Notes: generated by a model not told the origin, from the letters alone. Shown: positions 2,553 to 19,632, numbered from the stretch's first letter. The stretch: 64,000 nucleotides of DNA from an uncultured Chromatiales bacterium (GCA_964388275.1 CAYLZD010000010.1:8023-72022); one strand, 5' to 3'. A program made the numbers and translations.

Positions 2553-3275
2553 TCAGAGCATCGCAGTCGACGCTCCCAGTATGAAGAGCAATCCCAGGGT
2601 CACCCGGCGGAAAAGAACCTCATCGATATGCCTGCTGATGCGGACGCCGGCCGCGGTTCCGAGCACGAGCGCCGGAAGCAGGCCCGCCGAGGTCAGGACC
2701 TCCTCGGTTCCACACAAGCCGGCGGGAATCATTCCGGCGAGCGTCACGATGTTGAGCAGGAAAAAATACGCGCTTATGTTCGTGCGGAACGAATCCTTGC
2801 GCAGCCGCTCCATGGAGAAATAAGCGATGATCGGAGGTCCCGACAGCGATACGCTGCCGTTCAGCACTCCGCTCAGAAAACCGAAAACGTAAGGCCGGCC
2901 GAAGCGGGCGTTTCTCATGAATGAAAAATCGGCCGCGGCCAGGAGGGCGAACGCCGCTATCACCGCGCCGGCGGCGGTTTTGAGATGCCCGGCGCTGATC
3001 ACCGAGAGTATCCAGATGCCTGCGGGGACGCCGATGGCGGCGGGCAGAAGTATGGAAACGATGGTCTTGAAACGCAGCTCTTCCACATGATCCTTGGCCA
3101 CCCACAGGTTCGTGACGATGCTCAACAATACGAGCACCGGCACCGCCTCGCGCATGCCCAATATCATTCCCAGCAGCGGAAGAGCGAGCAGCGATATCCC
3201 GAATCCCGTGATCCCCTGAATGCAGGCCGCGGCAAGCAGCACCAGGCTGCCCGTCAGGATCTGTTCGGGTATCAT
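2553..3275 (-). CDS. TauE/SafE family sulfite/anion exporter (DUF81) membrane protein.
   Basis: 240 aa and polytopic. The translation has the internal duplicated halves and GxGxG-like motifs (QGITGFGISLLALPLL; GVLNGSVSLSGPPIIAYF) typical of TauE/SafE. The start overlaps the upstream gene stop by 4 nt. Confidence 0.85.
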   Translation of the reverse strand: MIPEQILTGSLVLLAAACIQGITGFGISLLALPLLGMILGMREAVPVLVLLSIVTNLWVAKDHVEELRFKTIVSILLPAAIGVPAGIWILSVISAGHLKTAAGAVIAAFALLAAADFSFMRNARFGRPYVFGFLSGVLNGSVSLSGPPIIAYFSMERLRKDSFRTNISAYFFLLNIVTLAGMIPAGLCGTEEVLTSAGLLPALVLGTAAGVRISRHIDEVLFRRVTLGLLFILGASTAML

Positions 3276-3772
3276 CCCGGTAAATCGTCGTCATCCCCCG
3301 CTTCGTAATCCACTTCGCGGACGCGTTTGGTGTCGCGCAGAATCTCGACGCTGCGCCTGATCTCGTCGCGCAGCTTCTCCACTTCGGGGATAGCCTGCAG
3401 TGTCACCACCGGTGTCGATCTGTCGGAGGTGTTCATTACGAGTATTCCCCGGCGGACGAGGCGGAGGGAGAATGGCGAGACTATGGAGTAATCCTTCACG
3501 CGGTACAGTTCGAGTTCCTGCGTTTTGCGCGTGAAGACTCCTGTCGAGATAATTATGCGTTGATTGCTGACGCTGTATTTCGTGAATTTCGTTTTGAACC
3601 AGCGCGCGGCCGCGAAAGGCAGAATAAGGGCGGGGATGGCGAAAAGATACCACCAGTATTCGAACCACGGCGAGATCGCGAAAGGCACGATGATGAAAAG
3701 CAGCAGGATGAAGTACCATCCGAAATTCAGCCAATGCGAGGGTGTGCCCGTCCAGATGTTATTTTCTTCCAT
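3272..3772 (-). CDS. Bacterial PH-domain (bPH_2, YdbS/YdbT-like) membrane protein.
   Basis: Two N-terminal TM helices, then LYRVKDYSIVSPFSLRLVRRGILVMNTSDRSTPVVTLQAIPEVEKLRDEI, which is typical of PF03703. The start is chosen at MEENNIW (3772); the longer ORF reaches 3808. Confidence 0.7.
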   Translation of the reverse strand: MEENNIWTGTPSHWLNFGWYFILLLFIIVPFAISPWFEYWWYLFAIPALILPFAAARWFKTKFTKYSVSNQRIIISTGVFTRKTQELELYRVKDYSIVSPFSLRLVRRGILVMNTSDRSTPVVTLQAIPEVEKLRDEIRRSVEILRDTKRVREVDYEAGDDDDLPG

Positions 3773-3989
3773 GGTATTCGGCTCCGATGATCCAGTGTGA
3801 TACCGCAAATGTACGCAACGGCTCGGTTATCGTAAACTGGGATCCCGGATGACCTGTTTTCCCGCAAAACACACGAAACAAGCGAAACAGGCTGGAAAAA
3901 ATGGAGAGTAAGGATGTTTCGTGTCCTTCGCCTGTTCCGCGGGGGATCGATGCGGTTAAACTGCTTGTGGAAGGACTTGTACACTCCCC

Positions 3990-4600
3990 GCGCAAACCAG
4001 CAGGCGTCCTCGCGGCGACCTGCACTGCCACTCGCGCAACCCAGCAGGCGTCCTTTTAACGGCTCGCACAAGTCCTTTTATCGGCTTGCACTGTTTTTCC
4101 GCCGTGCGCAGTGTCCTTCGCGGCGGCCTGCACGGGCGCTCATGACAACTTGCGAGCGTCCTCGTGAGGACCTGCACAGGCACTCGCGCGAACTTCCCGG
4201 CACTTTTTGCGCGCTGACGAGCACCGGAAGCAGACTTTCACGCGCTCTTACATGCTTGCATGGCACTTGATGTATATTCGCAGGCAGCTTTTACGCACTT
4301 GCGGGCGTCCTCGCGGCGGCCTGCACGGGCACTCGTGACAACTTGCGAGCGTCCTCGTTAGGACCTGCACAGGCGCTCGCGCGAACCTCCCGGCACTTTT
4401 TGCGCGCTGACGAGCACCGGAAGCAGACTTTCACGCGCTCTTACATGCTTGCATGGCACTTGATGTATATTCGCAGGCAGCTTTTACGCACTTGCGGGCG
4501 TCCTCGCGGCGGCCTGCACGGGCACTCGTGACAACTTGCGAGCGTCCTCGTGGGGACCTGCACAGTCACTCGCGCAATCTGCCCGGCACTTATCGCGCGC
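3990..4600. repeat. Hierarchical tandem repeat array. A 193-bp unit is present in about 2.5 near-identical copies (4098-4290, 4291-4483, 4484 to about 4595) plus a degenerate leading copy. Each unit carries two about 44-bp sub-repeats.
   Basis: Direct comparison shows 'ttacgcacttgcgggcgtcctcgcggcggcctgcacgggcactcgtgacaacttgcgagcgtcctcg' at 4291 and again at 4484, a period of 193. The sub-repeats have the consensus GCG(A/G)GCGTCCTCG..GACCTGCAC.GGCACTCGCG and contain the hairpin GTCCTC-GT-GAGGAC. Confidence 0.9.
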
Positions 4601-4665
4601 CGACGACGGCTTTTCGTATGGGGTGAGGTCGAATCCGATTCCTTCCGGTCGCGGTTCCGGCCCGT

Positions 4666-5100
4666 CTACAATTCTTTCGCCAGGTCCGCAATCTGCTTCA
4701 GTATCCCCAGGCGTTTTTCGAGCATGCTGATCTCGATCTGCACGGCCTCGAGGGATACGAAACCCGCGCTAGTGTCGTTCGGCGGAAATTCCAGCGCCTT
4801 GTCTTCCTTGGCGATCTTCACCGCATTGGTTACAGCGCTTTTGGGCTTCCTGCCCGGCTTCTTGCGCTCAATGGACGCCGTGGGGGCCGTTCCGCTCTTG
4901 AAACCGTTATAGTAGGATTGTATCGCCGAAAACACCTTGTCCGTGATTCTTTTTGAATCACCCTTGGCGATTTTTGAAACAGTGAGACTGTTGACTCCTG
5001 TGGCCCGCGCTATACCCGCAATGCTCAGCGATCCGCGCAGTTCGTCGACCATGCGTTCAGCCAGGAGAACCCGGTCTTCGTTTGGTTGTTTACTGCTCAT
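4666..5100 (-). CDS. Small DNA-binding protein with an N-terminal HTH, an AT-hook (KKPGRKPK) and a C-terminal coiled coil.
   Basis: 144 aa. SLSIAGIARATGVNSLTVSKIAKG is HTH-like. RKKPGRKPKS is a GRP-type AT-hook. The C-terminal IEISMLEKRLGILKQIADLAKEL is heptad-like. Confidence 0.6.
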   Translation of the reverse strand: MSSKQPNEDRVLLAERMVDELRGSLSIAGIARATGVNSLTVSKIAKGDSKRITDKVFSAIQSYYNGFKSGTAPTASIERKKPGRKPKSAVTNAVKIAKEDKALEFPPNDTSAGFVSLEAVQIEISMLEKRLGILKQIADLAKEL

Positions 5101-5348
5101 TTTTTCTCCAATGATGTGTGATGTTCCGGGATTGAATGTGCGAAATATGCTTATATTCGGAATAAATGCAACTCGATTCTCTGCAATCCGCCGAACGGAA
5201 TCCGGCGCACTCGAAACGAAGCGGTCGGCGTGTTACGATTACGTGGTTGGAGTGTCAACCTGGCATATCGCGCTTGTGCGTATAAATCCATGAGCGGTGC
5301 GCGCGGAACAATATACCGTTTATTACACGTCAAACCACATCCACCAAT

Positions 5349-7619
5349 GTGTGCATCATGAAGCATCTTATGTGTGTCACCATGCCCGCGGTTTTGCTCG
5401 CGTTTCAGGCGGTGGTGTTCCTCTTGCCTTCTCACGACGCCTTGGCTCAACCGACACTTCATTTCAACCGCATCGAGGTCAACTGGCCCCAGGTTGAGCT
5501 ATGGTTCTCGGTGGATTGCAACGGAATACCCAATTTCGACGTTTCGAAATTCGATCTTCACGTCCGGGAGAACGGCACTCCGGTCGGCAACTTCGTCGTT
5601 GATTGCGGGGATTCCAAGCCCCGTTGTCCGCTCTCGGCGGCGCTGGTGTTCGACGCCAGCGGCAGCATGACAGGCATCGGCATATTCGACGCCAAGGAGG
5701 CGGGGAAGGCTTTCGTGGACGCCATGGACCCCGCGAACGACGAGGCGTGCATCATCGCGTTCAGCAGTCAGGTGACGGTGCTGCAGACGATGACAAGTTC
5801 CAAATCGTTGCTCAACGCGGCCATCGATTCGATATTCGCACGGGGCGGCACCGCCTTGATAGACGGCGCCTACGCCGGCATCCACGAGCTTGCGTCGAAC
5901 GGAATCCGTCCATGTAAGGCGGTAATTGTCCTGTCCGACGGTGTGGACAACATGAGCAGGCGCCGAATCGAGGAAGCGACCGATTTTGCCGTGAGCGAAG
6001 GCATACGAGTGTACACCATCGGCCTGGGGGTCCACATCGATACCGCCATGCTTCGCGATATCGCCATGCGCAGCGGCGGGCGGTTCTTCCTGTGTTCCTC
6101 GTCAAGGGAACTCGTCGACGTTTACAGGGCGATCGCCATGCTCGCAACGCGCGACACGTTGGACTGCGTAATCCGCTACACGGGCAGCTGCATCGACGGG
6201 GGGGAGCGTATTGTGGATCTTGCGGTCCGCAATTACTGCGGAGGTTCGGACAGCGCCTCGCTCGTTTTCAGGGCGCCGGACAATATCGGCCGCTACAGGC
6301 CTCTGGCCCTCGGTCTGCGGGGTTCGACGACGGTGGAAACCTCCGCAGCCGGGGCGGCGGTGGACCTGCTCGACACACTGAGCGGAGAGCTCTTTCCGAC
6401 CTTGGATCTGCTCATCTCCTATGATTCGATGCTGCTCGGTGCCCCGGCGCTTTCAGGGGCCGGTTCACTCTTATCGCCGTTCGACGGAAGCGTGGCGCTG
6501 ATGCGGCCCGGATTGGCCCATGTGCGTCTCCTGGGGCCGCGCAGCGTATCGGGCGCAGGTCGGCTCTTCCGGCTGGAGTTCCCGGCCGCCGCGGTGAACG
6601 ACACGGTTTGCGCCGGAGTGGCGATCGCATATGCTTCTTTCGACGAGGGGTGCTTCATCCCTTCTCTCGATTCATCGCAGCTCTGCATTCTGCCCTGTCT
6701 TTTGTCGCCGACTGTCGAACCGTCGGGTCCTGTCGATTTCTGCGAAGGCGACACAGTGTCGTTGCGCACACAGCCGGGACATCCGCGCTATGCCTGGCAC
6801 AGAAACGGCCTGCCGCTTTCCGATACTCTTTCCGAGTTGCGGACCGGTTCGGGAGGCGAATATCATGTTCTGGTCGTCGACTCGCTAGGATGCGTCGCCG
6901 TGTCCGCGCCGGTCGAGCTCAAAGCGTTGTCGCGGCTGTCGGGCAGCGCGGGCAACGGGGACACGATCGTCGCGAAGCAGGGCGACATCATACCGGTTCC
7001 GATAAGGCTTCGACCTTTCATCGGCGCGGGCCGCCGCGTCACGGCCCGAATTACATTGACGTGGGATCCGTCGAAGCTCGAACTACTCGACGCATACAGA
7101 ATGCGCGGAAGCGAGTGGCCCGACAGCTCTTTCGTTCGAGCCGATCCCGGCCGGCTGGATGTCGGCATGTCTGACACCGCGTCGGGAGCTGGGGAGGACT
7201 TGTTTACGGCCGCTTTCCGGGTGAATGCCTCGCGTGTTCCGACACCGGAGCGGATCGTCTGCGAAGCGTCGATTTCCACCGGCTGCGACGGCGAATGGCG
7301 CGTCGAGCACCCGGTGATACTCGTCGACGGCTATTGCGAACCCTTGTTGACGAGGATCTCGACGCCTGCCGTATACAACTCGCCCAATCCGTTTTCAGAC
7401 GAGACCGCGATCACCGTCGAAAATCCTTCCGGCGGATTCTGCTCGCTGCTGCTGACCGACGCTTTCGGGCGTCTGCTCGAATGTCTGTATGAAGGAGAAA
7501 CCGGGAGCCGGGACCGGACAATCCGCTTCAAAGCCGGGTCTTATCCCGCCGGAACATATTTTCTCGTGCTGCGCACGCCGGATTCCGGCGCGGTGCGCGG
7601 CATGCATATTCTTCGTTGA
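5349..7619 (+). CDS. von Willebrand factor A domain protein with Ig-like domains and a T9SS C-terminal sorting domain.
   Basis: Signal peptide. The vWA MIDAS motif is VFDASGSMTG...GGTALIDGAY...LSDGVDN. The C-terminus NPFSDETAITVENP...GTYFLVLRTPDSGAVRGMHIL matches the T9SS CTD pattern. Confidence 0.85.
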   Translation: MCIMKHLMCVTMPAVLLAFQAVVFLLPSHDALAQPTLHFNRIEVNWPQVELWFSVDCNGIPNFDVSKFDLHVRENGTPVGNFVVDCGDSKPRCPLSAALVFDASGSMTGIGIFDAKEAGKAFVDAMDPANDEACIIAFSSQVTVLQTMTSSKSLLNAAIDSIFARGGTALIDGAYAGIHELASNGIRPCKAVIVLSDGVDNMSRRRIEEATDFAVSEGIRVYTIGLGVHIDTAMLRDIAMRSGGRFFLCSSSRELVDVYRAIAMLATRDTLDCVIRYTGSCIDGGERIVDLAVRNYCGGSDSASLVFRAPDNIGRYRPLALGLRGSTTVETSAAGAAVDLLDTLSGELFPTLDLLISYDSMLLGAPALSGAGSLLSPFDGSVALMRPGLAHVRLLGPRSVSGAGRLFRLEFPAAAVNDTVCAGVAIAYASFDEGCFIPSLDSSQLCILPCLLSPTVEPSGPVDFCEGDTVSLRTQPGHPRYAWHRNGLPLSDTLSELRTGSGGEYHVLVVDSLGCVAVSAPVELKALSRLSGSAGNGDTIVAKQGDIIPVPIRLRPFIGAGRRVTARITLTWDPSKLELLDAYRMRGSEWPDSSFVRADPGRLDVGMSDTASGAGEDLFTAAFRVNASRVPTPERIVCEASISTGCDGEWRVEHPVILVDGYCEPLLTRISTPAVYNSPNPFSDETAITVENPSGGFCSLLLTDAFGRLLECLYEGETGSRDRTIRFKAGSYPAGTYFLVLRTPDSGAVRGMHILR

Positions 7620-7664: not shown

Positions 7665-8630
7665 TCAGATTTTGTCCCCGAACAGGCGCCGCACCCTCTC
7701 CCTATGGAAGGCTTTTTTGCGGAGTTCGAGAGCTTCGAGCGTCTTTGAAATATGCGCGGCAGCCGTTGACAGCGAGCAATCCACCGCAATGCCTTCGGCT
7801 CGAGCGAAGTACGAGGCGGCCGTGTCGAGCACTTTTTCGTGCGGATTGCCGGTGAGAATGCGCAGAATGAGCTCATCGGCGAGGCCGGCGGTGCCGGCAT
7901 TGGAGCGGGAGAGCGGGCCGAGTATGGTTCGCGCGGCGTAGTTCAGCATGCCCCGCTCGAGGTCTTCGAGCATATCCTCCAGATCATCGATCATCTGCCA
8001 GGCGACGGCCAGCGCATCGCAGCATTCCGCGAGAGGCGAGGCGAGACGGGGCCGGCCACTGAGCTCGCAGGCGGCCTGAACGCCGATGCGCAGGGCGGAG
8101 TTTGTTCCCGCATAGAGGCGCGGCAGGCGTGACGGCGAGCTCCTGAAATTCCGTCCGGCATCGGCAATCCGCGCTATGCTTTCACAGCTTGCCACGATCA
8201 GCATTTCATAATTCCGCCAGAATGGAGCGCGCGATTCGAACAGCGTTCTGAAAGTCGCGGCGGCTTCCGAGTAGAAAAGTGTGGCGGCGAAAATGCCGTT
8301 TCTGTTCGCCGCCTGCCCGTCGTATACGTCATCCTGAAGCCGCAGCGCCAGGAAAATGCAGGTCTGAGCCCATAGAATCCCCCTCAGTTGTCTTTGACGC
8401 AGAGGCGCCGGCCGGCGTCTATCGTGCGCCGCCGTGTAAACCGCGGCCGGTATCACGGCCCAGTAAGGGCCCAGCCTGCCGGCGGAATCGACTTCTGCTT
8501 CGAAGTCCAGATACGTCCGAAGGCGGCGCAGATACGGCCTTATCGCCTCGCGCAGCGCAGGGGATTGCGCGGCGGTGAATTCCGCCATCCTCTCCAGAAG
8601 CGTCATCGCTCGACCGTGTCCAGGGAACAT
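7665..8630 (-). CDS. Polyprenyl synthetase (trans-isoprenyl diphosphate synthase) family protein, divergent and possibly ComQ-like.
   Basis: There are two aspartate-rich motifs about 130 aa apart: LRLQDDVYDGQAANRNG (FARM-like DDxxD...RxG) and AWQMIDDLEDMLEDLERG (SARM-like FQIxDDxxD). The protein is 321 aa, typical for this fold. Confidence 0.55.
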   Translation of the reverse strand: MFPGHGRAMTLLERMAEFTAAQSPALREAIRPYLRRLRTYLDFEAEVDSAGRLGPYWAVIPAAVYTAAHDRRRPAPLRQRQLRGILWAQTCIFLALRLQDDVYDGQAANRNGIFAATLFYSEAAATFRTLFESRAPFWRNYEMLIVASCESIARIADAGRNFRSSPSRLPRLYAGTNSALRIGVQAACELSGRPRLASPLAECCDALAVAWQMIDDLEDMLEDLERGMLNYAARTILGPLSRSNAGTAGLADELILRILTGNPHEKVLDTAASYFARAEGIAVDCSLSTAAAHISKTLEALELRKKAFHRERVRRLFGDKI

Positions 8631-8761
8631 TTCATTGGAGCCGATAAGCGGGTGTGGTCAACCGCCACGGCTGCGGCGCATGGAGCAGCCCATTTCGACA
8701 TGAACACCGGGACGGCCGCGGACACGGCCGCCCCGGTCCATCATTCCTCTGCAAGGTGAGA

Positions 8762-9040
8762 TCAGAGCACCCAACCGCCCCAGGGTGGTTTCGGCGCCCT
8801 TCCGATGACGATTTCGAGGCCCGCTTCGTTGAGCTGTGTGTAGCGGAACATGAATTTCAATCCGGTTTTCATGTCTTCGGACAGCTTCGGGATCGCTTCA
8901 TTCAGGTAGTTCAGCCCTTCCTCATCCAACTCCCAACCGGCTTTGCCGAGTGTGCCGTGTATGTCTATCAGGAGGTTTTCGAAGAAGGGCGGATTTGCGA
9001 AGCACGCTTGTATCACGTCCTTGAGTTTTACCTGCTCCAT
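8762..9040 (-). CDS. Nif11-like domain small protein (92 aa) with a Trp-rich C-terminal tail; candidate precursor peptide.
   Basis: MEQVKLKDVIQACFANPPFFENLL...LGKAGWELDEEGLNYL resembles the Nif11 leader family (..LKAFLEKV...AKEAGFxxxxEEL). The C-terminus is IVIGRAPKPPWGGWVL. A strong SD AAGGAG lies 5 nt upstream of the ATG. Confidence 0.6.
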   Translation of the reverse strand: MEQVKLKDVIQACFANPPFFENLLIDIHGTLGKAGWELDEEGLNYLNEAIPKLSEDMKTGLKFMFRYTQLNEAGLEIVIGRAPKPPWGGWVL

Positions 9041-9094
9041 ATTGACTCCTTTGTTGTTGCGTTGGTTTTCGTGAGCCGTGTTTCGGCTACTGGA

Positions 9095-11539
9095 TCATCG
9101 GTTTGCTTTCTTGTCCGAGCGTCCGGTTTCCCTGCCGTCGAGGATGAGACGCAGGGCCGCGATGCGTTTCCGGGCCTCGTAAGCGCGGAAGGATGTTGAG
9201 TCTGCCGCGGCGAAGGATAGATAGTCGGCCAAGGCCGCGCCGATCATCTCCTGATTGTTCTCGTAGAGCTGGGCGCGCTCGTAATGCGCCGCCGCATAGC
9301 CGGGTCGCAGCTCGACGGCCCTGCTGAAGGCTGTGTCGGCCTCGGCCGCGCGTCCCTGGGCCGAATATGCGCGGCCCAAACGCAGATAATGATCGGCCTT
9401 GTCCGGTTTCATGGAAACGGCCTTCAGCGCGATCGCTTCGGCTCTCGAGTGAAGTCCGGCGGCCGCGTAATGATCGGCCAGGCTGCCGTACGCCGAGTCG
9501 AGCGAAGCGAATCGTTCGAGACAGGCGGTAACGTATCTTTGTTCCCAGATCTCGGTGGTGTCGGCCCTCGATCGCCTGGCTGCGATGGCTGCTCGAGCCG
9601 CCGAACTGCCCGGGTAGGGGGAGCAGATGTCCCAGTTGTGCTCGATTATGGATGCGGCCTGTTCGACTCGGTCGAGCGCGAGAGCGCAGAAAGCGGCGAT
9701 AGGATAAACCGGCGCATATTTCCAGCGGGCTTGCACGCAGGGCATGGCGAGCCCGAGGGCTTTTTCGTAATCCCCCTGAGCGACCGCCAGTTCGGCGAGA
9801 TTTATCAGCAGCACGTGATTGCCCGGCGAATACTCCAGCGCGATTTCCAGGTACCGCTGCTGTTCCGGCTGTCTGTCGTCGATTAGAGCGCCGACGTATT
9901 GTATCATGGCCCGCTCGAAGGGATTCGCCAGGCGCTCCTGCCGGAGCAGAATTTTATATTGCCTGCGGGCTTCGTTCCGATTCGGTCTGTACAGAAGATT
10001 TGAGATCAGCCATATTCGCGCGCTGATAAACGTCGAGTCGTATCGGAGCGTCCGCCTCAATTCCTTCTCCGCGGATTCGCCGCGGTATATGATGCGTCTG
10101 GCTTCGAGAAAGGCGAGCTGGGCCTGCAGATTCCGCGCCTTGCCCGCGAGCCAGGGCTGTACGCTGCTGTCGGCCCTAACTTGTCCCGCTATCATGAAAT
10201 GATCGGCTATCTGGGACGCCATGCTCCTGACGGCCTCGGGCAGGGCGTTCTCGTTGGCCAGCGGCTGCGCGGCCGCGTATTCCACCTCGCCGTTTTCGTT
10301 TACCACCCTGGTCTGCATCAGATACCCGGTGGTAGTCCGCGATATCGAACCCGTGATCACGTTCAGTATGCCTTCTTCCTCCAGGAAATCCCTGAAACCG
10401 CTTTCCCTGAAATCCGGTTCAGTCGATCCGAAAGCCGCGTGTATTTTCGAGTTGAGACTCAACGGATCTGTCAGGACGAGCGCCCCGCGTCCCGTCAACT
10501 CATGCACAAGCATTTGCTGCACCAGTTCCGGTATGCCGTCGAGAGACGCTTCGCCTGTCTGATTCTCGAACGGGAAAACGGCAAGCCGCATCGAGTCGCC
10601 GCGGCCGGGCTTTACCGGCAGTATGTAAGGTTTCCACAACGGCCAGGCGATCGCTGCCAGGGCAGTCAAGAGCAGCGCGAACAACAAGCGCCGTTTCAAG
10701 GAGCCCGGACCGCCGCCCGCTTCGCCGATGGCCGCCTGCGGGGCCGGTTGTTCGATATATGCCGGCCTGTCGGCGGCCTGCTTCCGAAGACAGGCCGAAA
10801 TTAATTCCGCTGTGGCCCCGGACACATGTGGAAGGCGTGTTTTTACGTCGGCTTCCTCGTACTGGATGGAATAGCTCAATGCCTGCGGATAGTCTCCGGT
10901 GAAGGGCGGCGATCCCCCCAGCATTTCGAAAAGCACAACGCCGAGCGACCAGATGTCGCTTCTTCCGTCGGACGCTTCCCCCCGTATGCGCTCGGGCGAC
11001 ATGTACGACAGAGTGCCGGCCGTCATGTATTCGAAGGTATCCTCCGAATACGGCGCTTTCGCCAATCCGAAATCGAGTATCTTGACGCTTCCGTCGGGGA
11101 GGAGGAACAGGTTTTCCGGTTTTATGTCCCTGTGCACAATTCCTTTCTCGTGAGCCGCTTGCAGTCCCCGGCCCGCCTGGAAAAACATATCGAGGGCCTT
11201 TTTCTCGTCTATCGGTCCCCGGCCGATAAGGTCTCTGAGAGACTCGCCCTCGTGATATCCCATCGCTATGAACAGCTCGCCGTCGTCTGTTTCGCCCACA
11301 GTGTGGATGCTGCATATGTTCGGATGTTCCAGAGCCGATGCGGCGCGCGCTTCCTCCATCAGCCGCCGCCTCGCCGCAGCGTCGAGGCGGTCCCTCGCCT
11401 TGACGAATTTAAGCGCGACTATGCGTCCGAGCGTCTCATCCTCGGCTTTGTATATCTCTCCCATCCCGCCTTCGGCAATCTTCTCCAGCAGTCGGTAACC
11501 GGGAATGCTTCCGCGCGCGCTTCGGTCGTTTGCGTCCAT
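9095..11539 (-). CDS. Ser/Thr protein kinase with a TM helix, a periplasmic sensor-like region and C-terminal TPR repeats.
   Basis: Hanks kinase motifs are present: GxGxxG-like IAEGGMGEIY, VALK, HRDIKPENLFL, DFGLAK and SPE. One TM helix (LLFALLLTALAAIAWPLW). The long C-terminal TPR-like region is rich in A/Y/R repeats. Confidence 0.9.
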   Translation of the reverse strand: MDANDRSARGSIPGYRLLEKIAEGGMGEIYKAEDETLGRIVALKFVKARDRLDAAARRRLMEEARAASALEHPNICSIHTVGETDDGELFIAMGYHEGESLRDLIGRGPIDEKKALDMFFQAGRGLQAAHEKGIVHRDIKPENLFLLPDGSVKILDFGLAKAPYSEDTFEYMTAGTLSYMSPERIRGEASDGRSDIWSLGVVLFEMLGGSPPFTGDYPQALSYSIQYEEADVKTRLPHVSGATAELISACLRKQAADRPAYIEQPAPQAAIGEAGGGPGSLKRRLLFALLLTALAAIAWPLWKPYILPVKPGRGDSMRLAVFPFENQTGEASLDGIPELVQQMLVHELTGRGALVLTDPLSLNSKIHAAFGSTEPDFRESGFRDFLEEEGILNVITGSISRTTTGYLMQTRVVNENGEVEYAAAQPLANENALPEAVRSMASQIADHFMIAGQVRADSSVQPWLAGKARNLQAQLAFLEARRIIYRGESAEKELRRTLRYDSTFISARIWLISNLLYRPNRNEARRQYKILLRQERLANPFERAMIQYVGALIDDRQPEQQRYLEIALEYSPGNHVLLINLAELAVAQGDYEKALGLAMPCVQARWKYAPVYPIAAFCALALDRVEQAASIIEHNWDICSPYPGSSAARAAIAARRSRADTTEIWEQRYVTACLERFASLDSAYGSLADHYAAAGLHSRAEAIALKAVSMKPDKADHYLRLGRAYSAQGRAAEADTAFSRAVELRPGYAAAHYERAQLYENNQEMIGAALADYLSFAAADSTSFRAYEARKRIAALRLILDGRETGRSDKKANR

Positions 11540-11549
11540 GGAAGAATCC

Positions 11550-12893
11550 TCAGGGCGCGCTCCGGCGCCGTATTGCGACCGCTGTGAGGTCGTCGCGCTT
11601 GTATTCAGGACAGGAAAATGAATCCACCGCCGAACATACGGATTTCACGATCCCTGCCGCGGTCGCTTCGCGGGTTTTGTCGAGCAGATCGGAAAGCGCC
11701 TTCTCGCCGAACTGCGTTCCGCGGTCGTCCGCCGCCTCGGTTATGCCGTCCGTGAACATCAGGAGAGCGTCTCCGGGCGCAATAGCGACCGCGAGTTCCC
11801 TGTATTTCTGGTCGGGGAAAATGCCGAGCAGAAGTCCGCCCGGCCTCTCGAGCGATCCGACGCCGCCGCCGGCACTTATTAGCAACGGCACATCATGACC
11901 GGCGCTCGCATATGTAAAACTGTGAGCGGCCGGATCGAGCACGCCGTAAAGGATCGTGATGAACATCGCGTCAGCCGCCTCGCCGCAAAGGGCGTCGTTG
12001 AGCGCTTCGAGGCATGCTCCCGGACCTTTGTCCTTCCGCGCGAGCACGCGCATGAGAGTTCTCGCGACGGACATGAACATGGCCGCGGGAATGCCTTTGC
12101 CCGAAACGTCCGCAACCACGACTCCCCAGCGGCCGCCCGCGAGCGGTATGTAGTCGAAGTAGTCTCCTCCGATCAGTTGAGCCGGCACGTACGCGCCGGC
12201 GATCTCGTAACCGGCAATGCTCGGGGTATCGGCGGGCAGGAGGGACCTCTGTATCCCGGCGGCCATGCGCATTTCCTGCTGCAACAGCCGGAGCTCGGCC
12301 TCCTCCTCGGCAAGGCGCGCGCTTTCCAGCACCTGCGCTGATTGTGCGCCGATGATCGCCAGCAGCCGCTGGTCCTCTTCCGAAAAACCGCGGGCGCCGC
12401 ATTTGTTGTAAAGCGCCAGGACTCCAGTCATAGCGCCTTTGACCAGCAGCGGAACGGCGAGGAGGGAACTCACACCGGCATCCCAGACGATTCCCGGAAA
12501 ACGCGCATCCCCGTTTACAGTCTCGATCCGGAGCGGCGCCCTGTTCTTGATCATCCAACCTATCAATGCCTGATCGATGTGGTAGCTGGGTTGCTCCAAT
12601 TTAGTCAGCTTGCTGCGCACCAGGGTGCGCGAGTCCTGTCCGGTATTCCTCTCGACAAGTGTGATAGCGCCCTGTTCGGCGTTCAATCTCCGAGTCGCCT
12701 GCCGCACTATCACTTCGATGATTTCGGAGGTCGTGTGCATTCCTCCGATCTGACCGGCGAGAGTGTTGAGATACGACAGCTCGTCGAGCGAGCGTTTGAG
12801 GCGGTCGATCTCGAACGCCGCGGGAGTTTCCTGCTTGTCGGCTGCTGAAGGATCCATTTTGTCTTTGATATCCGGGCGATATATCGGCGGCAT
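11550..12893 (-). CDS. GAF domain-containing PP2C-type (SpoIIE/RsbU-like) serine phosphatase.
   Basis: A GAF-like region is followed by the PPM fold with a metal-binding GDYFD motif, VADVSGKG and FTDGITEA. The start is chosen at MPPIYRP (12893); the longer ORF to 13085 has a non-protein-like N-terminus. Its stop is 11 nt from the kinase start. Confidence 0.8.
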   Translation of the reverse strand: MPPIYRPDIKDKMDPSAADKQETPAAFEIDRLKRSLDELSYLNTLAGQIGGMHTTSEIIEVIVRQATRRLNAEQGAITLVERNTGQDSRTLVRSKLTKLEQPSYHIDQALIGWMIKNRAPLRIETVNGDARFPGIVWDAGVSSLLAVPLLVKGAMTGVLALYNKCGARGFSEEDQRLLAIIGAQSAQVLESARLAEEEAELRLLQQEMRMAAGIQRSLLPADTPSIAGYEIAGAYVPAQLIGGDYFDYIPLAGGRWGVVVADVSGKGIPAAMFMSVARTLMRVLARKDKGPGACLEALNDALCGEAADAMFITILYGVLDPAAHSFTYASAGHDVPLLISAGGGVGSLERPGGLLLGIFPDQKYRELAVAIAPGDALLMFTDGITEAADDRGTQFGEKALSDLLDKTREATAAGIVKSVCSAVDSFSCPEYKRDDLTAVAIRRRSAP

Positions 12894-13223
12894 TCCCGCC
12901 CGCCGTCGTCGTCCAAGCGCCTGAATCGTCCGTATCCGGCATGGAAGGAATCCGCCATTGCAATGCGCTCCGGAAAGAGTGTTTGCCGGTCCCGAACAGT
13001 ACGATTGAAACCGCGAAATGATAGGATTTCCGCAAGACAAAAGCAAGAATCGCGACTTTGTTCGGGGATTGCGGAGAGCGGTCAAGCGGCCGCCGTCGCT
13101 TCCACACCGGCCCCGTTACCCGCGCGGCGGACAAGCCGGCTCGTCGGGCGCGCCGATGAGATACGCCGATGTGCCGGGACCGGTCAAGGTTATCGGGAAG
13201 CCGTCAGTACCCGGCGCCTTCCG

Positions 13224-15251
13224 TCAAGGCACTTGTGTATTCCGCGTGTTCCCAGTGTTGACCCCTCCGATATTGCGCAGAATCACGGCGCGGTCGTTTC
13301 CCGCGCCGGAATACTGCGTGACGCCGTTCATGCCCGTGTCTTCGCGGTGGTACCCGGCTGCGGTTGCAGTGATGTCGCCGCTGCCAAGGCGCAGAAGGAT
13401 GAAGGACGGATCGTTGCCGGCGCCGGTGTACTTCAGCTGTCCATCCGCATTCGCATCACCGGACCACATTCCGAAAGGCGCTTGTCCCGCCGACAAACCT
13501 GTCATCGGCTCCGTGCCGTACGCCTGCGCCTGCGCCGTGGTGAAGTCGTACAGCGGTGTGGCCGCGTCGATGCGGATGGTATCGGAGCTCATGACGGCCA
13601 GGTGATTTCTGTGCCGGATCACCAGGTAATACGGTCCCGGGGTCAGCGCGGGGAAGGACACGGGGCTGCTTCCGTTCAGGTCGGTGATGCGGCCGTTCGC
13701 GTGCAGGAAGGCGGCCCTCCTCGCCGCGGATGTTCCTCCGGGCGTCGTTCGGAGTTCCAGCAGCAACCAGTCGACGATGGTGTTCGCGGGGATGGATCCC
13801 ACGCTTTCGGCGCCTGCGTAATTCCACGGCTGTGTATTGTAAGGTTGTGATAGAGGAAGCAGGCAGCCGCTTCCCAGAGAAACCGACATGCCGCCGGCCG
13901 GACCCGACCACGGGCCCTGCAGGAATATCTTGGCATCGACGATGCAGGCCGTCGCGGCGCCGGCCGAGTAACCCGTGAAATCGCCACCGAGCTGAACGCC
14001 GGTTGCGCTCAGTAGATTCGCGGCCGTGTCCGCTTTGTTCCGCTTGAACCACTGCGAGGCGATCCATTGGCCCGTGTGCATGTTGTCCTCTGGTCCGACA
14101 ATATCCGCATCCGTGTATTTGAATTGCGCGCTGCCGATACCGACGGAAGTGGACAGCACATCCACCGCCCAGTATCGATTGATGTAGGATGCCTGGCTCG
14201 TGTTCTGCGGGTGCTTGGCGTTCGCCACCCTCACGCCGGCGCCGTAGGTCCCGCTGATGTTGGTGAACTGAAGAACCGCAGGAGAATACTCGGCCGTTCC
14301 CGTCAGGTCGCCCAGCGGGTAAGTGTAGGCGCCGGCCGCGCTGAAACGTCTGATCAGCATGCCGGCGCCGGTGGTGGCTATCATGTCGTTTGCCGAGAAT
14401 CCGGCCGAAGTAGTAATTATCGAACCGGTGGTCCCGATTATAGCGTTCGAATCGCCGATCGAGAGAATCGCGCCTGACAGAGTTAAAATGCCGTTGGAAT
14501 TCAAGACTCCGGTCAGCGTCTTGGTGCTGGCGGACAGTATCAGATCGTCGTCATACGTGCCGCCCGGCAGATACTGTGCAGTTGTGGCATAGAATTCCAC
14601 GGCCCCCTGCCGCATCGGGAGATTCGAATACCAGCGCATCCCGGAAGGGAGCGGAGTCGGGCTCGTATTGGCGGTCCGCAGCTTGCCGCTCACCCAGGTC
14701 CAATCCGGCTTTCCCGACAGGCGGTAGACACCGAGATCGAAGACGGACTGATTGACGTTCGTGAAGCCCTCCACGTAGAGTTCGTGCGAGACAGAGATGT
14801 CTCCGCCGGCCGCGACTGTGCGTGTGGCGCCGGTGGCTTCGGTTTTCAACGAGTGATAAGTTCCCGCCGGCACGGTTTGAGCGCCCGCGGCGCTGAAGAA
14901 AACGTAACTTCCCCATGTTTTCCCGGAGGGCAGAGGCGTCGCCGAAGTGTTTTCCGTGTAAATGAAGCCGCTGTTGGCTACGGCGCCGCTGAAGACCAGT
15001 GCATATTGCTTCAGGAAGAGGTTGATGTTTGTGTTGACGGAGAGCGAAGCGAAGGAATATACGCCGATGTTCTCGTCAACGGTGCAATTAGCCGCGATCA
15101 CCACATCGTCTCCGTTGCCGGGTTTCTGGGCATTCTGCCAGTTCGTCGCGGTGCTCCAATTTCCGGCCGTCATGAAGGTGCGAACGGCGGCGTCGACGCG
15201 TACGGTCGTTAGTGCCGCGAAGATGGCGCAAATAAGCAAGCTTGTTTTCAT
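13224..15251 (-). CDS. Secreted repeat protein with a signal peptide and internal ~45-aa repeats; hypothetical.
   Basis: The signal peptide is MKTSLLICAIFAALTTVRVDAA. A repeated unit reads SATPLPSGKTWGSYVFF.AAGAQTVPAGTYHSL / TSPTPLPSGMRWYSN...AQYLPGGTYDD. A C-terminal Ca-binding-like GDANADGQLKYTGAGND is present. No canonical T9SS CTD. Confidence 0.65.
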   Translation of the reverse strand: MKTSLLICAIFAALTTVRVDAAVRTFMTAGNWSTATNWQNAQKPGNGDDVVIAANCTVDENIGVYSFASLSVNTNINLFLKQYALVFSGAVANSGFIYTENTSATPLPSGKTWGSYVFFSAAGAQTVPAGTYHSLKTEATGATRTVAAGGDISVSHELYVEGFTNVNQSVFDLGVYRLSGKPDWTWVSGKLRTANTSPTPLPSGMRWYSNLPMRQGAVEFYATTAQYLPGGTYDDDLILSASTKTLTGVLNSNGILTLSGAILSIGDSNAIIGTTGSIITTSAGFSANDMIATTGAGMLIRRFSAAGAYTYPLGDLTGTAEYSPAVLQFTNISGTYGAGVRVANAKHPQNTSQASYINRYWAVDVLSTSVGIGSAQFKYTDADIVGPEDNMHTGQWIASQWFKRNKADTAANLLSATGVQLGGDFTGYSAGAATACIVDAKIFLQGPWSGPAGGMSVSLGSGCLLPLSQPYNTQPWNYAGAESVGSIPANTIVDWLLLELRTTPGGTSAARRAAFLHANGRITDLNGSSPVSFPALTPGPYYLVIRHRNHLAVMSSDTIRIDAATPLYDFTTAQAQAYGTEPMTGLSAGQAPFGMWSGDANADGQLKYTGAGNDPSFILLRLGSGDITATAAGYHREDTGMNGVTQYSGAGNDRAVILRNIGGVNTGNTRNTQVP

Positions 15252-15270: not shown

Positions 15271-16389
15271 TCATTTCGAAAATGCAGATCCGCGCCGACC
15301 GCCCGCCTCCGCTTTGAAACGGGTCACGGCCGTCGCTTCCGGCGTTCGCAGAAGCAGGAAATACACCCCGGGCACGAGACTTCCCGCATCGAAACCGAGA
15401 GTGTGAAATCCGGCGGGAAGTTCATGTCTCGCGATGATGTTGCGCACGGGCATCCCGAGAAGATTGAAAACGGCGGCCGAGACCGTGCCGGGCGCCGACA
15501 GCGAGAAGGAAAGGACCGCGCGTCCGGCGGCGGGATTCGGATGCACTGAGCAGTGTAATACCGGGGGCGGCCCGCCGACGATCATCACTTCCACGGTTTG
15601 TGAATATTCGAAAAGTCCGCCGGCGCCGCCGAAGCGCAATCTGTAGGCTACGATCGAGGCATCGCGGTCGCTTGCGACAAATGCGGCGGGGAAGGGATCG
15701 AGGAAACGGAAGTCCCCATGTTCGTCTCTGTCCATGCCGTCCACCGTGCCGACGCGTTTCCAGCCTTCGCTGTCACATCGGCGTTCTATCTCGAAGCCGA
15801 GTGGAGGCGCCGTGCCTTCGTATTTCCAGACGAGCAGCACCGCGCCGTCGTCCGGCACGGCAGAGAGCGACGACAGGGCGACTGGAAGCGGCACACTGCC
15901 GGCGTCCGGCTGGAAAAGGCTGCCGGTCTTGTCGAGACCGGCGATCTCCGCGTAGTATTCGCCGTTGTTTGCGGCGGTCCACGAGTCGTCGGCAAGCTCG
16001 AAGACGCCGCTTCCGCTTCCGGTTTGTCTGACGGGCACGGTGACGACGGATATCTGGGTGTTGGCGCTCCAATTGATGGTTTGCGCCGTGGCGGCTGCGA
16101 ATTTCTGGTATCGGTATACGCCGGAAGTCCGCTCGATGCCCTGCTTCTCTATCGAGTACGCGGCGGATGACGGATCGCCGAGACCGACGCCGTAAGCGTC
16201 GAGCCAGCGCACCGTGAAAACGATGTTCGAGAGCGGCAAGGCGGGCACCGTGTCGGAAGCCCGCAGCCGCACTTCGAGAGTGGAATCGCCGGCGTGGAAT
16301 ATACCGGCGGAGATCTGTTGCGCTTTCGAACCGGGAATCATCGGGCAGAGCAGGAATACTCCCGCGGTCACAGCGGCGATCGTTTTCAT
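15271..16389 (-). CDS. Secreted protein with a T9SS C-terminal sorting domain; hypothetical.
   Basis: The start at MKTIAAVTAGVFLLCPMIPGSKAQQ is a signal peptide, with GGAG upstream. The C-terminal HPNPAAGRAVLSFSLSAPGTVSAAVFNLLGMPVRNI...GVYFLLLRTPEATAVTRFK fits the T9SS CTD. Confidence 0.75.
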   Translation of the reverse strand: MKTIAAVTAGVFLLCPMIPGSKAQQISAGIFHAGDSTLEVRLRASDTVPALPLSNIVFTVRWLDAYGVGLGDPSSAAYSIEKQGIERTSGVYRYQKFAAATAQTINWSANTQISVVTVPVRQTGSGSGVFELADDSWTAANNGEYYAEIAGLDKTGSLFQPDAGSVPLPVALSSLSAVPDDGAVLLVWKYEGTAPPLGFEIERRCDSEGWKRVGTVDGMDRDEHGDFRFLDPFPAAFVASDRDASIVAYRLRFGGAGGLFEYSQTVEVMIVGGPPPVLHCSVHPNPAAGRAVLSFSLSAPGTVSAAVFNLLGMPVRNIIARHELPAGFHTLGFDAGSLVPGVYFLLLRTPEATAVTRFKAEAGGRRGSAFSK

Positions 16390-16948
16390 TTTCGACTCCT
16401 GTGCATATGGAACATACGTCCGGTATATCAGTGATCCCGACCGTTTTCCGTTTCCTTTGGAAGAAACAACAGTTGTTGGTAATAATAGAATTTGCGCCGG
16501 CCAAAAGCAATGAAAAATCAAATGGATTTTCCGATTCGTGGATATGGACTGCCCTAGTCCGCCAGAGATGGCGGTGTCGTCGGATGTAAATGTACGCCGC
16601 TGTTCCAGGAAGAAATCATCAGGAATCCGGCGCAGGGAAATAGGTTGAAAAATATCCGAATTTATATTGACTTTGTTCGCGGGGAAGAGTAGCTTTGATC
16701 TTCGTTTTTCATCAGCCCCACAAATCCTTCGAAAGGAAAATTATCGGTTTCACGAACGTGCGCACCTGACAGCTTCGGATGTCGTAGCAGGAGCAGTTGT
16801 ACCGCGGCTGCTTGTCTGTAGCGGAAGGATGACGCAAAAAGGCACGAATTCGGTTCGATGTGAACAACGAAGAGAATATCGCAGCGTCGCAAGGCGCGCG
16901 GTTGGAAGTCACTATACCATTCATCCCAATAATCAGGAGGACTGATTC

Positions 16949-17842: not shown

Positions 17843-17907
17843 TCCTCATCAATTCCCAAAATATGAAATGGACGAGCTTGCCGAAGCGGAACACGGCGTC
17901 GGCGCGT

Positions 17908-19632
17908 ATGCGATTCTTCCGGATTGTCCTCCCCGGGATGACGTTGCTTTGCTCTTTTTGCGTCTCCCTCTCTTACGGCCAGGAATTGGATAGACTGGAA
18001 GAAATACAGCCGTTTACATTGCAGGGCAATGTGAGCGGCACAACGACCGGCTACTCGATGTCGGGCATCGAGCGCAGGCAGACGCCGTTTTCATGGATGT
18101 TCAACGGCGCCGCGACGGCCACCGTTTACGACGTGGAAATGCCTTTCAGTTTCATGTTCGCCGAACGCGAGCGCGAGTTCCATCAACCGTTCAATGAATT
18201 CGGCATTTCCCCGAGTTACAAGTGGGTGAAATTGCATCTCGGATACAGGTCTCTTTCCTGGTCGCGCTACACGATGGCCGGGATGCGTTTCGCGGGCGCC
18301 GCCCTGGAACTGATGCCGCAGGACTTCCAATTCGCCGTCATGTACGGCCGGCTCGCGCGCGCCGTGGAGGAGGATCCCGACAACCCGCTGGCAGTGCCGG
18401 CTTACAAGAGAACAGGCGGCGGCGCCATGGCCAAGATCGGCAATGAAAACGGTTTCTTCCAGGTGTCTCTTTTCTGGGCGCTGGACGACACCGCCTCGCT
18501 CGCCCGTCAGCCGTCGTACATACTTCCGCAGGAAAACGTGGCCGCAGCCTTCGGCGCCTACTTCGTCGCCTTCGATTGGCTGACGGCGGAACTCGACGTC
18601 GGCGCCTGCTTCCTCACGAACAACCTTTTCTCGCCGGAACTGTCGGGCAGCGGACTCAGCGGCGGAAAGCAGCAGAGCCGCGTCAGGCATTTCAAGCGTT
18701 TCTTCGACTTGCGCACTTCATCCACGCTGTCTTTCGCGATGAAAACAGGCCTGCTGTTCCGCTTTCCCTGGATGAACGCGCGACTGGATTACGAAATAAT
18801 CGAACCGGAATTCACCGCCTTCGGCGCCTATTATTTCAACTCCGACATACAGAATCTCACGCTGGCCCCGAGTTTCCAACTCTTCGACGGCGCCGTGAGG
18901 GTGACGGCCTCCGGCGGCGTGCAGAGCGACAACGTGGGCAACACAAAGACGGCGACAACGACGCGCTTGATAACCTCGGCAAACATCGGCTGGTCGCCCA
19001 ACAACGTCTGGAATATCGACGCCATGTTCTCGAATTACGCCACCAGCCAGGCGGCCACACGCGAACCGCTCAACGATTCCATCAGGGTGCGGAACGTCAA
19101 TACATCCATCTCGCTAACACCGCGCATGATGCTGGAATCCGACGCGTTGAGGCATGTAGTGACACTCGCGGCCGGCACGATGGTCTACGACGACATGAAC
19201 ATCGTTACGGGCCGTTTTTCCGGATCTTCCACCACGACAACCTCGTTGTCGTACAACCTGGGATTCAAGGAAACCCCGTGGACCACCGGCGCCGCTATCA
19301 ACTGGTCCAACACCGAAACGGCGTTCGGAGTGACGAAAAATGTGGGCTTCGCAATCAACGGCGCCACATCATTTTTCGAAAGCGCGCTGAGTCTCAGCCT
19401 CACTATCGGATACTCCAGCATCACCGTCGGATCGGCGGACGCCTCGGGTGTGCTCACGCAGACTCTCGGAGTAGGATACCGGGCGTCGAACGACGACCAG
19501 TTCACGTTCTCACTTACCGGAAGCCAAAACGGAGGCGGTTCGGAAATCAATCCGGCCTATCGTGAATACACCGCCACCGTGAATTACAACAGAGCGATTT
19601 CCTGGACTCCCTCGGGGGCCGATACTCCATGA
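17908..19632 (+). CDS. Putative outer-membrane beta-barrel protein; hypothetical.
   Basis: The signal peptide is MRFFRIVLPGMTLLCSFCVSLSYGQ. Alternating hydrophobic beta-strand-like segments are rich in aromatic residues and G/S/T/N. The start is ambiguous between 17863 and 17908. Confidence 0.6.
   Translation: MRFFRIVLPGMTLLCSFCVSLSYGQELDRLEEIQPFTLQGNVSGTTTGYSMSGIERRQTPFSWMFNGAATATVYDVEMPFSFMFAEREREFHQPFNEFGISPSYKWVKLHLGYRSLSWSRYTMAGMRFAGAALELMPQDFQFAVMYGRLARAVEEDPDNPLAVPAYKRTGGGAMAKIGNENGFFQVSLFWALDDTASLARQPSYILPQENVAAAFGAYFVAFDWLTAELDVGACFLTNNLFSPELSGSGLSGGKQQSRVRHFKRFFDLRTSSTLSFAMKTGLLFRFPWMNARLDYEIIEPEFTAFGAYYFNSDIQNLTLAPSFQLFDGAVRVTASGGVQSDNVGNTKTATTTRLITSANIGWSPNNVWNIDAMFSNYATSQAATREPLNDSIRVRNVNTSISLTPRMMLESDALRHVVTLAAGTMVYDDMNIVTGRFSGSSTTTTSLSYNLGFKETPWTTGAAINWSNTETAFGVTKNVGFAINGATSFFESALSLSLTIGYSSITVGSADASGVLTQTLGVGYRASNDDQFTFSLTGSQNGGGSEINPAYREYTATVNYNRAISWTPSGADTP

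Follow-up and report, generated by a model that had tools for sequence, protein, structure and literature searches.

A stretch of 64,000 nucleotides from an uncultured Chromatiales bacterium (GCA_964388275.1, CAYLZD010000010.1:8023-72022), referred to below in its whole length as the window, contains a small gene, X, which is followed by an enzyme gene, Q, and preceded on the same strand by the gene of a putative receptor. Judging from the sequences of its family, X has the anatomy of a precursor of peptides that are made on ribosomes and modified after translation (RiPPs), with a conserved recognition leader, a variable core and one fixed modifiable residue, which is tryptophan. Q is predicted to be a peptide tryptophan prenyltransferase.

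Gene X and the neighbouring enzyme gene Q

The features of these two genes are as follows.

8762-9040, minus strand: precursor gene X, 92 aa, ATG at 9040-9038 and stop at 8764-8762 (open reading frame and translation)
9046-9052, minus strand: Shine-Dalgarno motif AAAGGAG, 5 nt 5' of the ATG of X
8873-9040, minus strand: helical leader of X, approximately residues 1-56, assigned to the NHLP clan from an alignment of 24 sequences (A3) and from NHLP-clan matches of relatives
8765-8797, minus strand: Pro/Trp core APKPPWGGWVL of X (translation)
8780-8782, minus strand: codon of W87, the family-conserved Trp and predicted prenyl acceptor (column at least 90% conserved in A3)
8771-8773, minus strand: codon of W90, a second candidate acceptor in a GGW context (sequence)
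8706-8737, minus strand: hairpin with a 14-bp G+C-rich stem and a 4-nt loop, 25 nt past the stop of X
7665-8630, minus strand: enzyme gene Q, 321 aa, or 313 aa from the start at 8606 preferred by gene callers; 131 nt downstream of X

The complete translation of X is MEQVKLKDVIQACFANPPFFENLLIDIHGTLGKAGWELDEEGLNYLNEAIPKLSEDMKTGLKFMFRYTQLNEAGLEIVIGRAPKPPWGGWVL. It starts with MEQVKLKD and ends in the C-terminal stretch GRAPKPPWGGWVL, and a middle region separates the leader from the Pro/Trp core. The small open reading frame (ORF), the Shine-Dalgarno motif and the PKPPWGGWVL tail, all described in an earlier note on this DNA, are present as stated there. Since motifs of the Shine-Dalgarno type precede only 6 of the 32 long ORFs of the window (a crude count; the window has 59% G+C), that of X stands out; neither candidate start of Q is preceded by such a motif. 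The hairpin lies in the 131-nt spacer between X and Q and has no trailing U-run, and the fold of the spacer (8631-8765, minus strand) has a minimum free energy of -59.7 kcal/mol (z -2.0). It may be a partial terminator or a stabiliser of mRNA. Together, the strong ribosome-binding motif and the hairpin after the stop codon would tip the balance towards more precursor than enzyme. A scan around these genes detected neither a promoter nor a minus-strand terminator, and an Rfam scan of the window gave zero matches.

X is a single-copy gene within the window. A near-identical locus is present on three JGI metagenome contigs, where one variant of X has two changed residues, both outside the tail. 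A word-index homolog search with X returned self or near-identical matches only, and a single-sequence structure model was uninformative (predicted local distance difference test, pLDDT, 52). The ORF is nevertheless more than a chance one, because the protein is conserved in the same syntenic position at no fewer than 30 independent loci.

Q carries a first aspartate-rich motif (FARM) D100-D101-x-x-D104 (DDVYD), Q212, and a second one (SARM) D215-D216-x-x-D219-x-x-x-D223 (DDLED). The glutamine before SARM is also found in canonical synthases and is not discriminating by itself. The match of Q to the Pfam family polyprenyl_synt (PF00348) reaches 13.1 bits, below the cutoff of 27; weak matches to the same family were found in 11 of 50 relatives (best E 1e-4), along with some weak Pfam matches to SQS_PSY. 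The possibility that Q is a canonical chain-elongating polyprenyl synthase was rejected on the grounds of this sub-threshold match and its distinct family. Word-index searches with Q and with the enzyme alignment returned self or near-identical sequences only, plus P0056 for the alignment. An exhaustive HMMER search gave 375 cluster representatives of the Q family at E<=1e-3, with lengths of about 310 aa and identities of about 30%. The invariant positions in the alignment of 50 sequences are W57, P61, Q89, D100, D101, D104, D215, D216, D219 and D223, the conservation of Q212 reaches at least 90%, and the consensus motifs are RIQDDLFDGQ and AGQIxDDLxDIxEDLxRGRxNYAA. There is no Lys or Arg among these invariant positions as a possible site for isopentenyl diphosphate (IPP). 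Three relatives of Q with public names are all designated 'hypothetical protein'; two of the three have records at NCBI, one from Bacteroidota and the other from Ignavibacteriota.

An AlphaFold2 model of Q, computed with the alignment of 50 sequences, is all-alpha with a pLDDT of 91.6 and a predicted template modelling score of 0.90. According to this model, Q has the fold of isoprenyl diphosphate synthases of the trans type (trans-IDS). The closest solved folds are those of chain-elongating synthases, heteromeric ones included. A phmmer search of Q against PDB sequences gave nothing at E<=10, and a profile search gave weak matches to polyprenyl synthases only.

Related loci and the families of X, Q and the sensor

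Related loci were gathered by exact-protein look-ups and by two collection scans with degenerate DNA patterns for SARM; six-frame ORFs were scored with a hidden Markov model (HMM) of the Q family, and clustering was performed at 80% identity. The scores were bimodal, with 70 loci having true members of the Q family at 129-391 bits and a second tier at 40-73 bits. The Q-family loci form 48 non-redundant clusters with a median pairwise identity of 33%, and their named hosts belong to Ignavibacteriota, Bacteroidota and Acidobacteriota. Low sequence identities among the loci argue against one copied mobile element.

An X homolog detectable by HMM is situated immediately upstream of the Q homolog and on the same strand in 30 of the 38 clusters with at least 500 bp of upstream sequence, in agreement with the co-occurrence of the small protein and a polyprenyl-synthase-like neighbour that the earlier note had proposed to look for. 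Further copies are divergent and were recognised by eye (loci L250, L203 and L156), frameshifted (L039) or an uncertain candidate (L068). In L039 (5950-6530; contig_28385 of an Ignavibacteriota metagenome-assembled genome, MAG), the leader-like and RPWP pieces of the precursor are in different frames, which is probably due to an assembly error rather than to a pseudogene. Upstream of X and Q, again on the same strand, a homolog of the 814-aa sensor of the window was found in 28 of the 31 clusters with at least 1500 bp of upstream sequence. This third conserved partner was absent from the earlier note. No further gene family was recurrent across the 48 loci. A fourth conserved gene was considered and rejected, since the candidates for it turned out to be shadow ORFs antisense to the enzyme gene, or secreted proteins that are unrelated and differ in position from locus to locus, one of which bears a C-terminal sorting-tail-like end.

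The small proteins of these loci, 38 of them distinct, have a common helical leader with the pattern L.DV...A..D..F...LL.....AL...G..L...D...L, followed by a variable region. In A3, the only near-invariant positions after Met1 are L31, P83 and W87 (numbering of the window protein), and the usual form of the core is PPPPW, PPxW or, at the C-terminus, APPxW. The stretch after the conserved Trp is highly variable and comprises from 0 to about 50 residues. To avoid circularity in the count of Trp in tails, an HMM was built from the leader columns only. It matched exclusively beside such enzymes within the retrieved set of loci; all 35 distinct matches have Trp in the tail, and 26 of them contain P-x(0-2)-W. 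Trp makes up 4.0% of the tails in this set, 1.3% of the leaders and 1.7% of the enzymes, and Pro makes up 12.5% of the tails. A conserved helical leader, a variable tail and one near-invariant Trp are what the earlier note had proposed to look for in an alignment of homologs. The X family is not a fully conserved Nif11 protein lacking a modifying enzyme.

The Nif11 label itself, given to the N-terminal domain in the earlier note, did not hold. Neither X nor any of 24 relatives matched the Nif11 model (Pfam PF07862) at E<=1, and membership of X in that family was rejected. Among RiPP leaders, the NHLP (nitrile-hydratase leader peptide) clan is a sister of Nif11, and it is to this clan that the leader of X belongs at the family level, as several profile matches indicate. 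NCBIfam NF038399 ('Os1348 family NHLP clan protein') matches 16 of the 24 relatives, the best at 42.6 bits against a cutoff of 40 and the only one above it; the NHLP leader model TIGR03793 matches 4, and Pfam Frankia_peptide matches 10 (best E 3.9e-6). The profile of the X family also found nitrile hydratase alpha chains in PDB (E ~3e-4), followed by Os1348 (6lk7, E 0.027) and an NHLP leader chimera (E 0.17). The top PDB match of the A3 profile, ahead of the nitrile hydratases, was the engineered symmetric HisF 2w6r_A (E 3.5e-7, two stretches), which looks like helix mimicry and was not used. The earlier note was right that no LanM, cyclodehydratase or radical SAM gene is adjacent (the neighbours were scanned), and that X does not look like the precursor of a lanthipeptide or a thiazole/oxazole-modified microcin, since such enzymes are missing nearby and the core is not rich in Cys, Ser or Thr.

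Some variants of the precursor deserve mention. In a sub-type with Cys-flanked Trp (CPWxDCP, e.g., GQCPWPDCPDSTT or SACPWMDCPP), found in L148, L141, L195, L177 and L156, this motif replaces Pro-Pro-Trp, and the core may be looped by a disulfide. The small ORFs of L144 and L193 end in CHWDD. The Ignavibacteriota-like locus L014 has two tandem precursor genes (5154-5465 and 5526-5891) before the enzyme gene; both products contain PPPW/VPPW and then SN..G.F..W, and the locus shares its GAF-PP2C and kinase genes with the window.

The features upstream of X in the window are as follows.

9095-11539, minus strand: putative receptor (sensor), 814 aa (Pfam, hydropathy, synteny)
10760-11497, minus strand: Hanks-type Ser/Thr kinase domain of the sensor, aa 15-260 (Pfam Pkinase, E 1e-49)
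10631-10693, minus strand: single transmembrane helix of the sensor, aa 283-303, preceded by KRR (hydropathy)
9098-10630, minus strand: C-terminal region of the sensor, aa 304-814, about 510 aa, with TPR repeats (Pfam)
11550-13085, minus strand: GAF + SpoIIE/PP2C phosphatase (Pfam); 447 aa with an end near 12893 according to gene callers

Because there is one hydrophobic helix and it is preceded by KRR, the C-terminal region of the sensor should be extracytoplasmic. This region is conserved across the loci (phmmer E 1e-19 to 1e-88), and the output domains differ: 18 sensors have a kinase, 3 a class III nucleotide cyclase and 1 a winged-helix ToxR/CadC-like domain, and 10 are cut by contig ends. 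In each there is one transmembrane helix between the output domain and the sensor region. No histidine kinase is conserved across the loci; the candidate receptors are a Ser/Thr kinase, a class III cyclase or a winged helix-turn-helix (wHTH) protein. The winged-helix example (L068:1565-3226, an Acidobacteria MAG) is a ToxR-like one-component version of the module, in which the sensor region is fused to an OmpR/CadC-like DNA-binding domain; its small upstream ORF of 74 aa (...SFIWKTGTPGIPAPEGAR) has diverged too far to be detected by the HMM. The GAF-PP2C protein accompanies the kinase in four loci (the window, L014, L170 and L197), where it is encoded upstream of the sensor, and it is likely to be a partner phosphatase of the kinase and an accessory part of the system.

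Several other observations were made in the window. A 193-bp tandem repeat (2.6 copies, 94% matches) adjoins a 22-bp repeat at 4050-4606, between the gene of a bPH_2-domain protein (3272-3808) and a small MogR-like DNA-binding gene (4666-5100). At 5349-7619 there is a convergent VWA-domain gene with a weak match to a sorting tail of the type IX secretion system (counterpart L001:10988-13287), which is one 753-aa call in two of the metagenome contigs and is split into 372 aa and 393 aa in the third. Very large ORFs lie at 19687-25569 (1960 aa, no Pfam family) and 30699-34988 (1429 aa), and no Pfam family was assigned to the neighbours at 13224-15251, 15271-16521 and 17863-19632.

Proposed mechanism and rival explanations

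In our opinion, X is most probably a RiPP-type precursor whose Trp is prenylated by Q, the two genes forming, together with the sensor, an autoinducer module of the ComQXP/PalPXQ kind with a receptor other than a histidine kinase. We estimate the probability of this reading at about 0.6. The NHLP-type leader of X would dock onto Q, which, with its Asp-rich motifs, Mg2+ and the Gln before SARM, would ionise a prenyl diphosphate and move a C5-C20 prenyl group to the indole of Trp. By analogy with PalQ and ComQ (PMC10853753, PMC13290415), the acceptor would be W87 in PPW, the alternative being W90 in GGW. A pyrroloindoline ring would probably form, as in ComX and PalX. The lipidated C-terminal peptide would then be freed and arrive in the periplasm or outside, where the membrane Ser/Thr kinase would detect it with its extracytoplasmic TPR region, and the GAF-PP2C phosphatase would oppose the kinase and reset the signal. 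If the product of X and Q were the ligand of the sensor, one would expect a sensor region that stays constant while the outputs are exchanged, and that is always encoded beside these two genes.

A number of facts speak against this reading. Taken alone, X is not significant against any NHLP or Nif11 model: its sole database match is Pfam Frankia_peptide at E 0.093, nothing was found for it in NCBIfam, and its assignment to the clan comes through the family profiles. Haft et al. (2010) reportedly gave Gly-Gly type cleavage of the leader and linkage to a C39-peptidase ABC exporter as features of the NHLP clan; no Gly-Gly is conserved before the core in A3, and no transporter or exporter, leader peptidase or other peptidase family recurs across the 48 loci. 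No transporter or peptidase was seen among the scanned neighbours in the window either, and a peptide made in the cytoplasm and lacking a signal sequence would have no evident route to a sensor in the periplasm. Many relatives carry the conserved Trp at an internal position, with up to about 50 residues after it, while PalQ requires a C-terminal Trp. Finally, the linkage of the sensor to X and Q was observed in loci that had been collected through a search for the enzyme.

The strongest rival is that X and Q make a prenylated RiPP metabolite, such as an antimicrobial, a membrane-active compound or a surface lipopeptide, rather than a signal, and that the kinase regulates its production or senses something else. 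We consider it unlikely, albeit worth serious attention. Precursors resembling those of bacteriocins are numerous in the NHLP clan, Os1348, on which NF038399 was founded, has been linked to antibiotic activity, and the long Lys-rich or Pro-rich tails of some relatives look more like those of effectors than of pheromones. Prenylated peptides can be membrane-active (PMC13290415). The lack of a linked exporter in the 48 loci also suits a non-signal product, yet recurrent immunity or transporter genes are missing from the same loci. The sole additional conserved partner is the extracytoplasmic region of the sensor with its swapped outputs, which fits a ligand and its receptor better than a producer and its regulator, and both characterised analogues, comQXPA and palPXQ, include a sensor kinase.

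It is improbable that X is an accessory subunit or regulator of a synthase of small-molecule isoprenoids, e.g., the small subunit of a heteromeric hexaprenyl or heptaprenyl diphosphate synthase. Such a role would be in line with the retention of both Asp-rich motifs in Q, with the chain-elongating and partly heteromeric nature of the nearest solved folds and with the weak Pfam matches of the Q family to polyprenyl_synt and SQS_PSY. However, the leader of X is homologous to leaders of NHLP-clan RiPPs and not to small subunits of synthases, and what is conserved in X is one Trp in a variable, Pro-rich and probably disordered tail. On the side of the enzyme, the Q family has no invariant Lys or Arg as an IPP site and is far nearer to the putative PalQ-like enzymes (40-73 bits) than to weakly scoring ORFs of the same retrieved set (~17-30 bits), presumed to be mostly ordinary synthases. 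That X might be an ordinary Nif11/NHLP-domain protein of unrelated function, lying beside the enzyme gene by chance, as its single copy in the window and the lack of a significant family match for X alone might suggest, is very improbable and already contradicted by the same gene order in 30 of 38 independent loci of three phyla with enzymes about 33% identical, as well as by the occurrence of leader-only HMM matches only beside such enzymes in the retrieved set.

A wider proposal may be put forward, to which we would give slightly less than an even chance. According to it, diderm bacteria (Ignavibacteriota, Bacteroidota and Acidobacteriota) would have a widespread and unrecognised cell-cell or autocrine signalling, in which a prenyl-Trp peptide with Pro-Pro-Trp is the ligand of a dedicated periplasmic TPR sensor with interchangeable outputs, these being a Ser/Thr kinase of the eukaryote-like kind, an adenylate cyclase or a DNA-binding domain similar to that of ToxR. 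The logic would be that of ComX-type pheromones, outside Gram-positive bacteria and without two-component receptors. In the literature that was found, Trp-prenylated peptide systems are described only from Firmicutes (ComX, PalX), in one pair from Chloroflexi (StheQ/StheX) and in a few natural-product pathways (ChrPC). If this interpretation is right, such chemistry extends to another three diderm phyla, most of whose members are uncultured, and a natural ligand would become available for those bacterial Ser/Thr kinases and cyclases that have TPR sensors in the periplasm. The Q family, with at least 375 sequence clusters, could be annotated, and it could supply peptide-lipidating enzymes for internal, proline-flanked Trp, which PalQ does not accept. 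The X-Q pair is small enough for direct testing.

Comparison with known tryptophan prenylation systems

The closest known system is PalP-PalX-PalQ of Paenibacillus alvei (Miyata, Ito and Fujinami 2023), in which PalQ, a terpene synthase according to its former annotation, attaches a prenyl group to indole C3 of the C-terminal Trp in the NHLP precursor PalX, and the gene of a histidine kinase is adjacent (PMC10853753). The functional positions of PalQ are D89/D93 of FARM, Q197 and D200/D204 of SARM, and a C-terminal Trp is strictly needed (PMC10853753). According to a review of 2026, Trp is the target of every trans-IDS-like peptide prenyltransferase that has been characterised, and the Gln before SARM helps in the recognition of indole (PMC13290415).

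The second-tier enzymes of our search, about 23 in number from Paenibacillus, Cohnella and Thermobacillus, are the next-best group in the retrieved loci. At a distance of about 75 nt downstream of each there is the gene of an NHLP precursor, about 80 aa in length and with Trp at or near its end (e.g., ...YLVIPPSPSSGILKTDASTQGSW), as published for PalQ and PalX, and one of these precursors passes TIGR03793 at 66 bits. About 22 distinct precursors of Paenibacillaceae were seen, in L124, L087, L079, L026, L060, L022 and about 17 other loci. From the taxon, gene context and motif spacing, we infer that these pairs are PalQ/PalX-like. In hhalign comparisons, the Q family aligned with the PalQ-like enzymes over 286 columns (probability 99.4%, E 3.6e-21), and the X family aligned with the PalX-like precursors over the leader (probability 92.5%, E 4.8e-7). 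The positions D89/D93, Q197 and D200/D204 of PalQ are spaced identically to D100/D104, Q212 and D215/D219 of Q.

Like PalPXQ, the module of the window combines a sensor kinase, an NHLP-type precursor (about 80-90 aa) in which a Trp close to the C-terminus is conserved, and an enzyme of about 310 aa with the trans-IDS fold. At the same time, the enzymes form separate families, with about 19% identity between Q and PalQ-like enzymes and scores of 211-391 bits inside the Q family versus 40-73 bits to the PalQ-like group. The order of genes is sensor-X-Q in the window, whereas the precursor gene lies downstream of the enzyme gene in Paenibacillus. PalP is a histidine kinase, and the putative receptors of the window type join a periplasmic TPR region to a Ser/Thr kinase of the Hanks type, to a cyclase or to a wHTH domain. 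The conserved Trp of the window type stands in Pro-Pro-Trp and is often internal, whereas PalQ acts on a strictly C-terminal Trp, and the hosts are Firmicutes for PalPXQ as opposed to Ignavibacteriota, Bacteroidota and Acidobacteriota.

The quorum-sensing system ComQ-ComX-ComP-ComA of Bacillus subtilis and the pair StheQ/StheX from Sphaerobacter thermophilus (bioRxiv 10.64898/2026.08.29.745113) likewise include an IPPS-fold enzyme that prenylates a near-C-terminal Trp of an adjacent small precursor, and the com system of Bacillus also encodes a membrane sensor alongside. ComQ modifies an internal Trp, as most enzymes of the window family would have to do. Compared by description, ComQ and StheQ have a pseudo-SARM NDxxx instead of the full DDxxDxxxD of the Q family, and ComX and StheX are not described as NHLP-type, in contrast to X with its NHLP-clan leader. 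Reception in com depends on a histidine kinase paired with a response regulator, unlike the Ser/Thr kinase proposed for the window.

In the fused prenyltransferase-cyclase ChrPC, a trans-IDS-like P domain prenylates an internal Trp of a RiPP, according to the account of Hubrich et al. (2024) given in PMC13290415; Q is a single-domain enzyme without the cyclase half. Proteins of about 620-670 aa, whose N-terminal half matches the Q-family profile (hhalign 99.0%, E 8.6e-18), may be fused prenyltransferase-cyclases of the ChrPC type. They were found in Flavobacteriia and other Bacteroidota (L035, L021, L028, L073, L030 and L103) and in Patescibacteria (L027, L041, L113, L119 and L125), and small ORFs such as ...LEQRLEMREWDLPTEEE occur just upstream of some of them.

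Os1348 of Pseudomonas sp. Os17 (PMC7726476) is, like members of the X family, a small helical precursor-like protein of the NHLP clan. Its gene is followed by genes of a GNAT protein, a peptidase and a SagB-type dehydrogenase (PMC7726476), while X is followed by a prenyltransferase-like gene. The paper on Os1348 contains no mention of tryptophan (PMC7726476), and most relatives of X score below the NF038399 cutoff.

The trans-IDS-like peptide prenyltransferases of the searchable literature are ComQ, PalQ, ChrPC and StheQ, with Ord1 acting on free Trp. In this literature, which is incomplete, no description was found of the Q family or of Ser/Thr kinase, cyclase or TPR receptors tied to such a pair. 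Summarizing these comparisons, it may be concluded that the pairing of X and Q is not unprecedented and is a variant of a known one, since an NHLP precursor and a Trp prenyltransferase of the trans-IDS-like kind are already combined in PalX and PalQ (PMC10853753). Of greater interest is the wider module of three genes.

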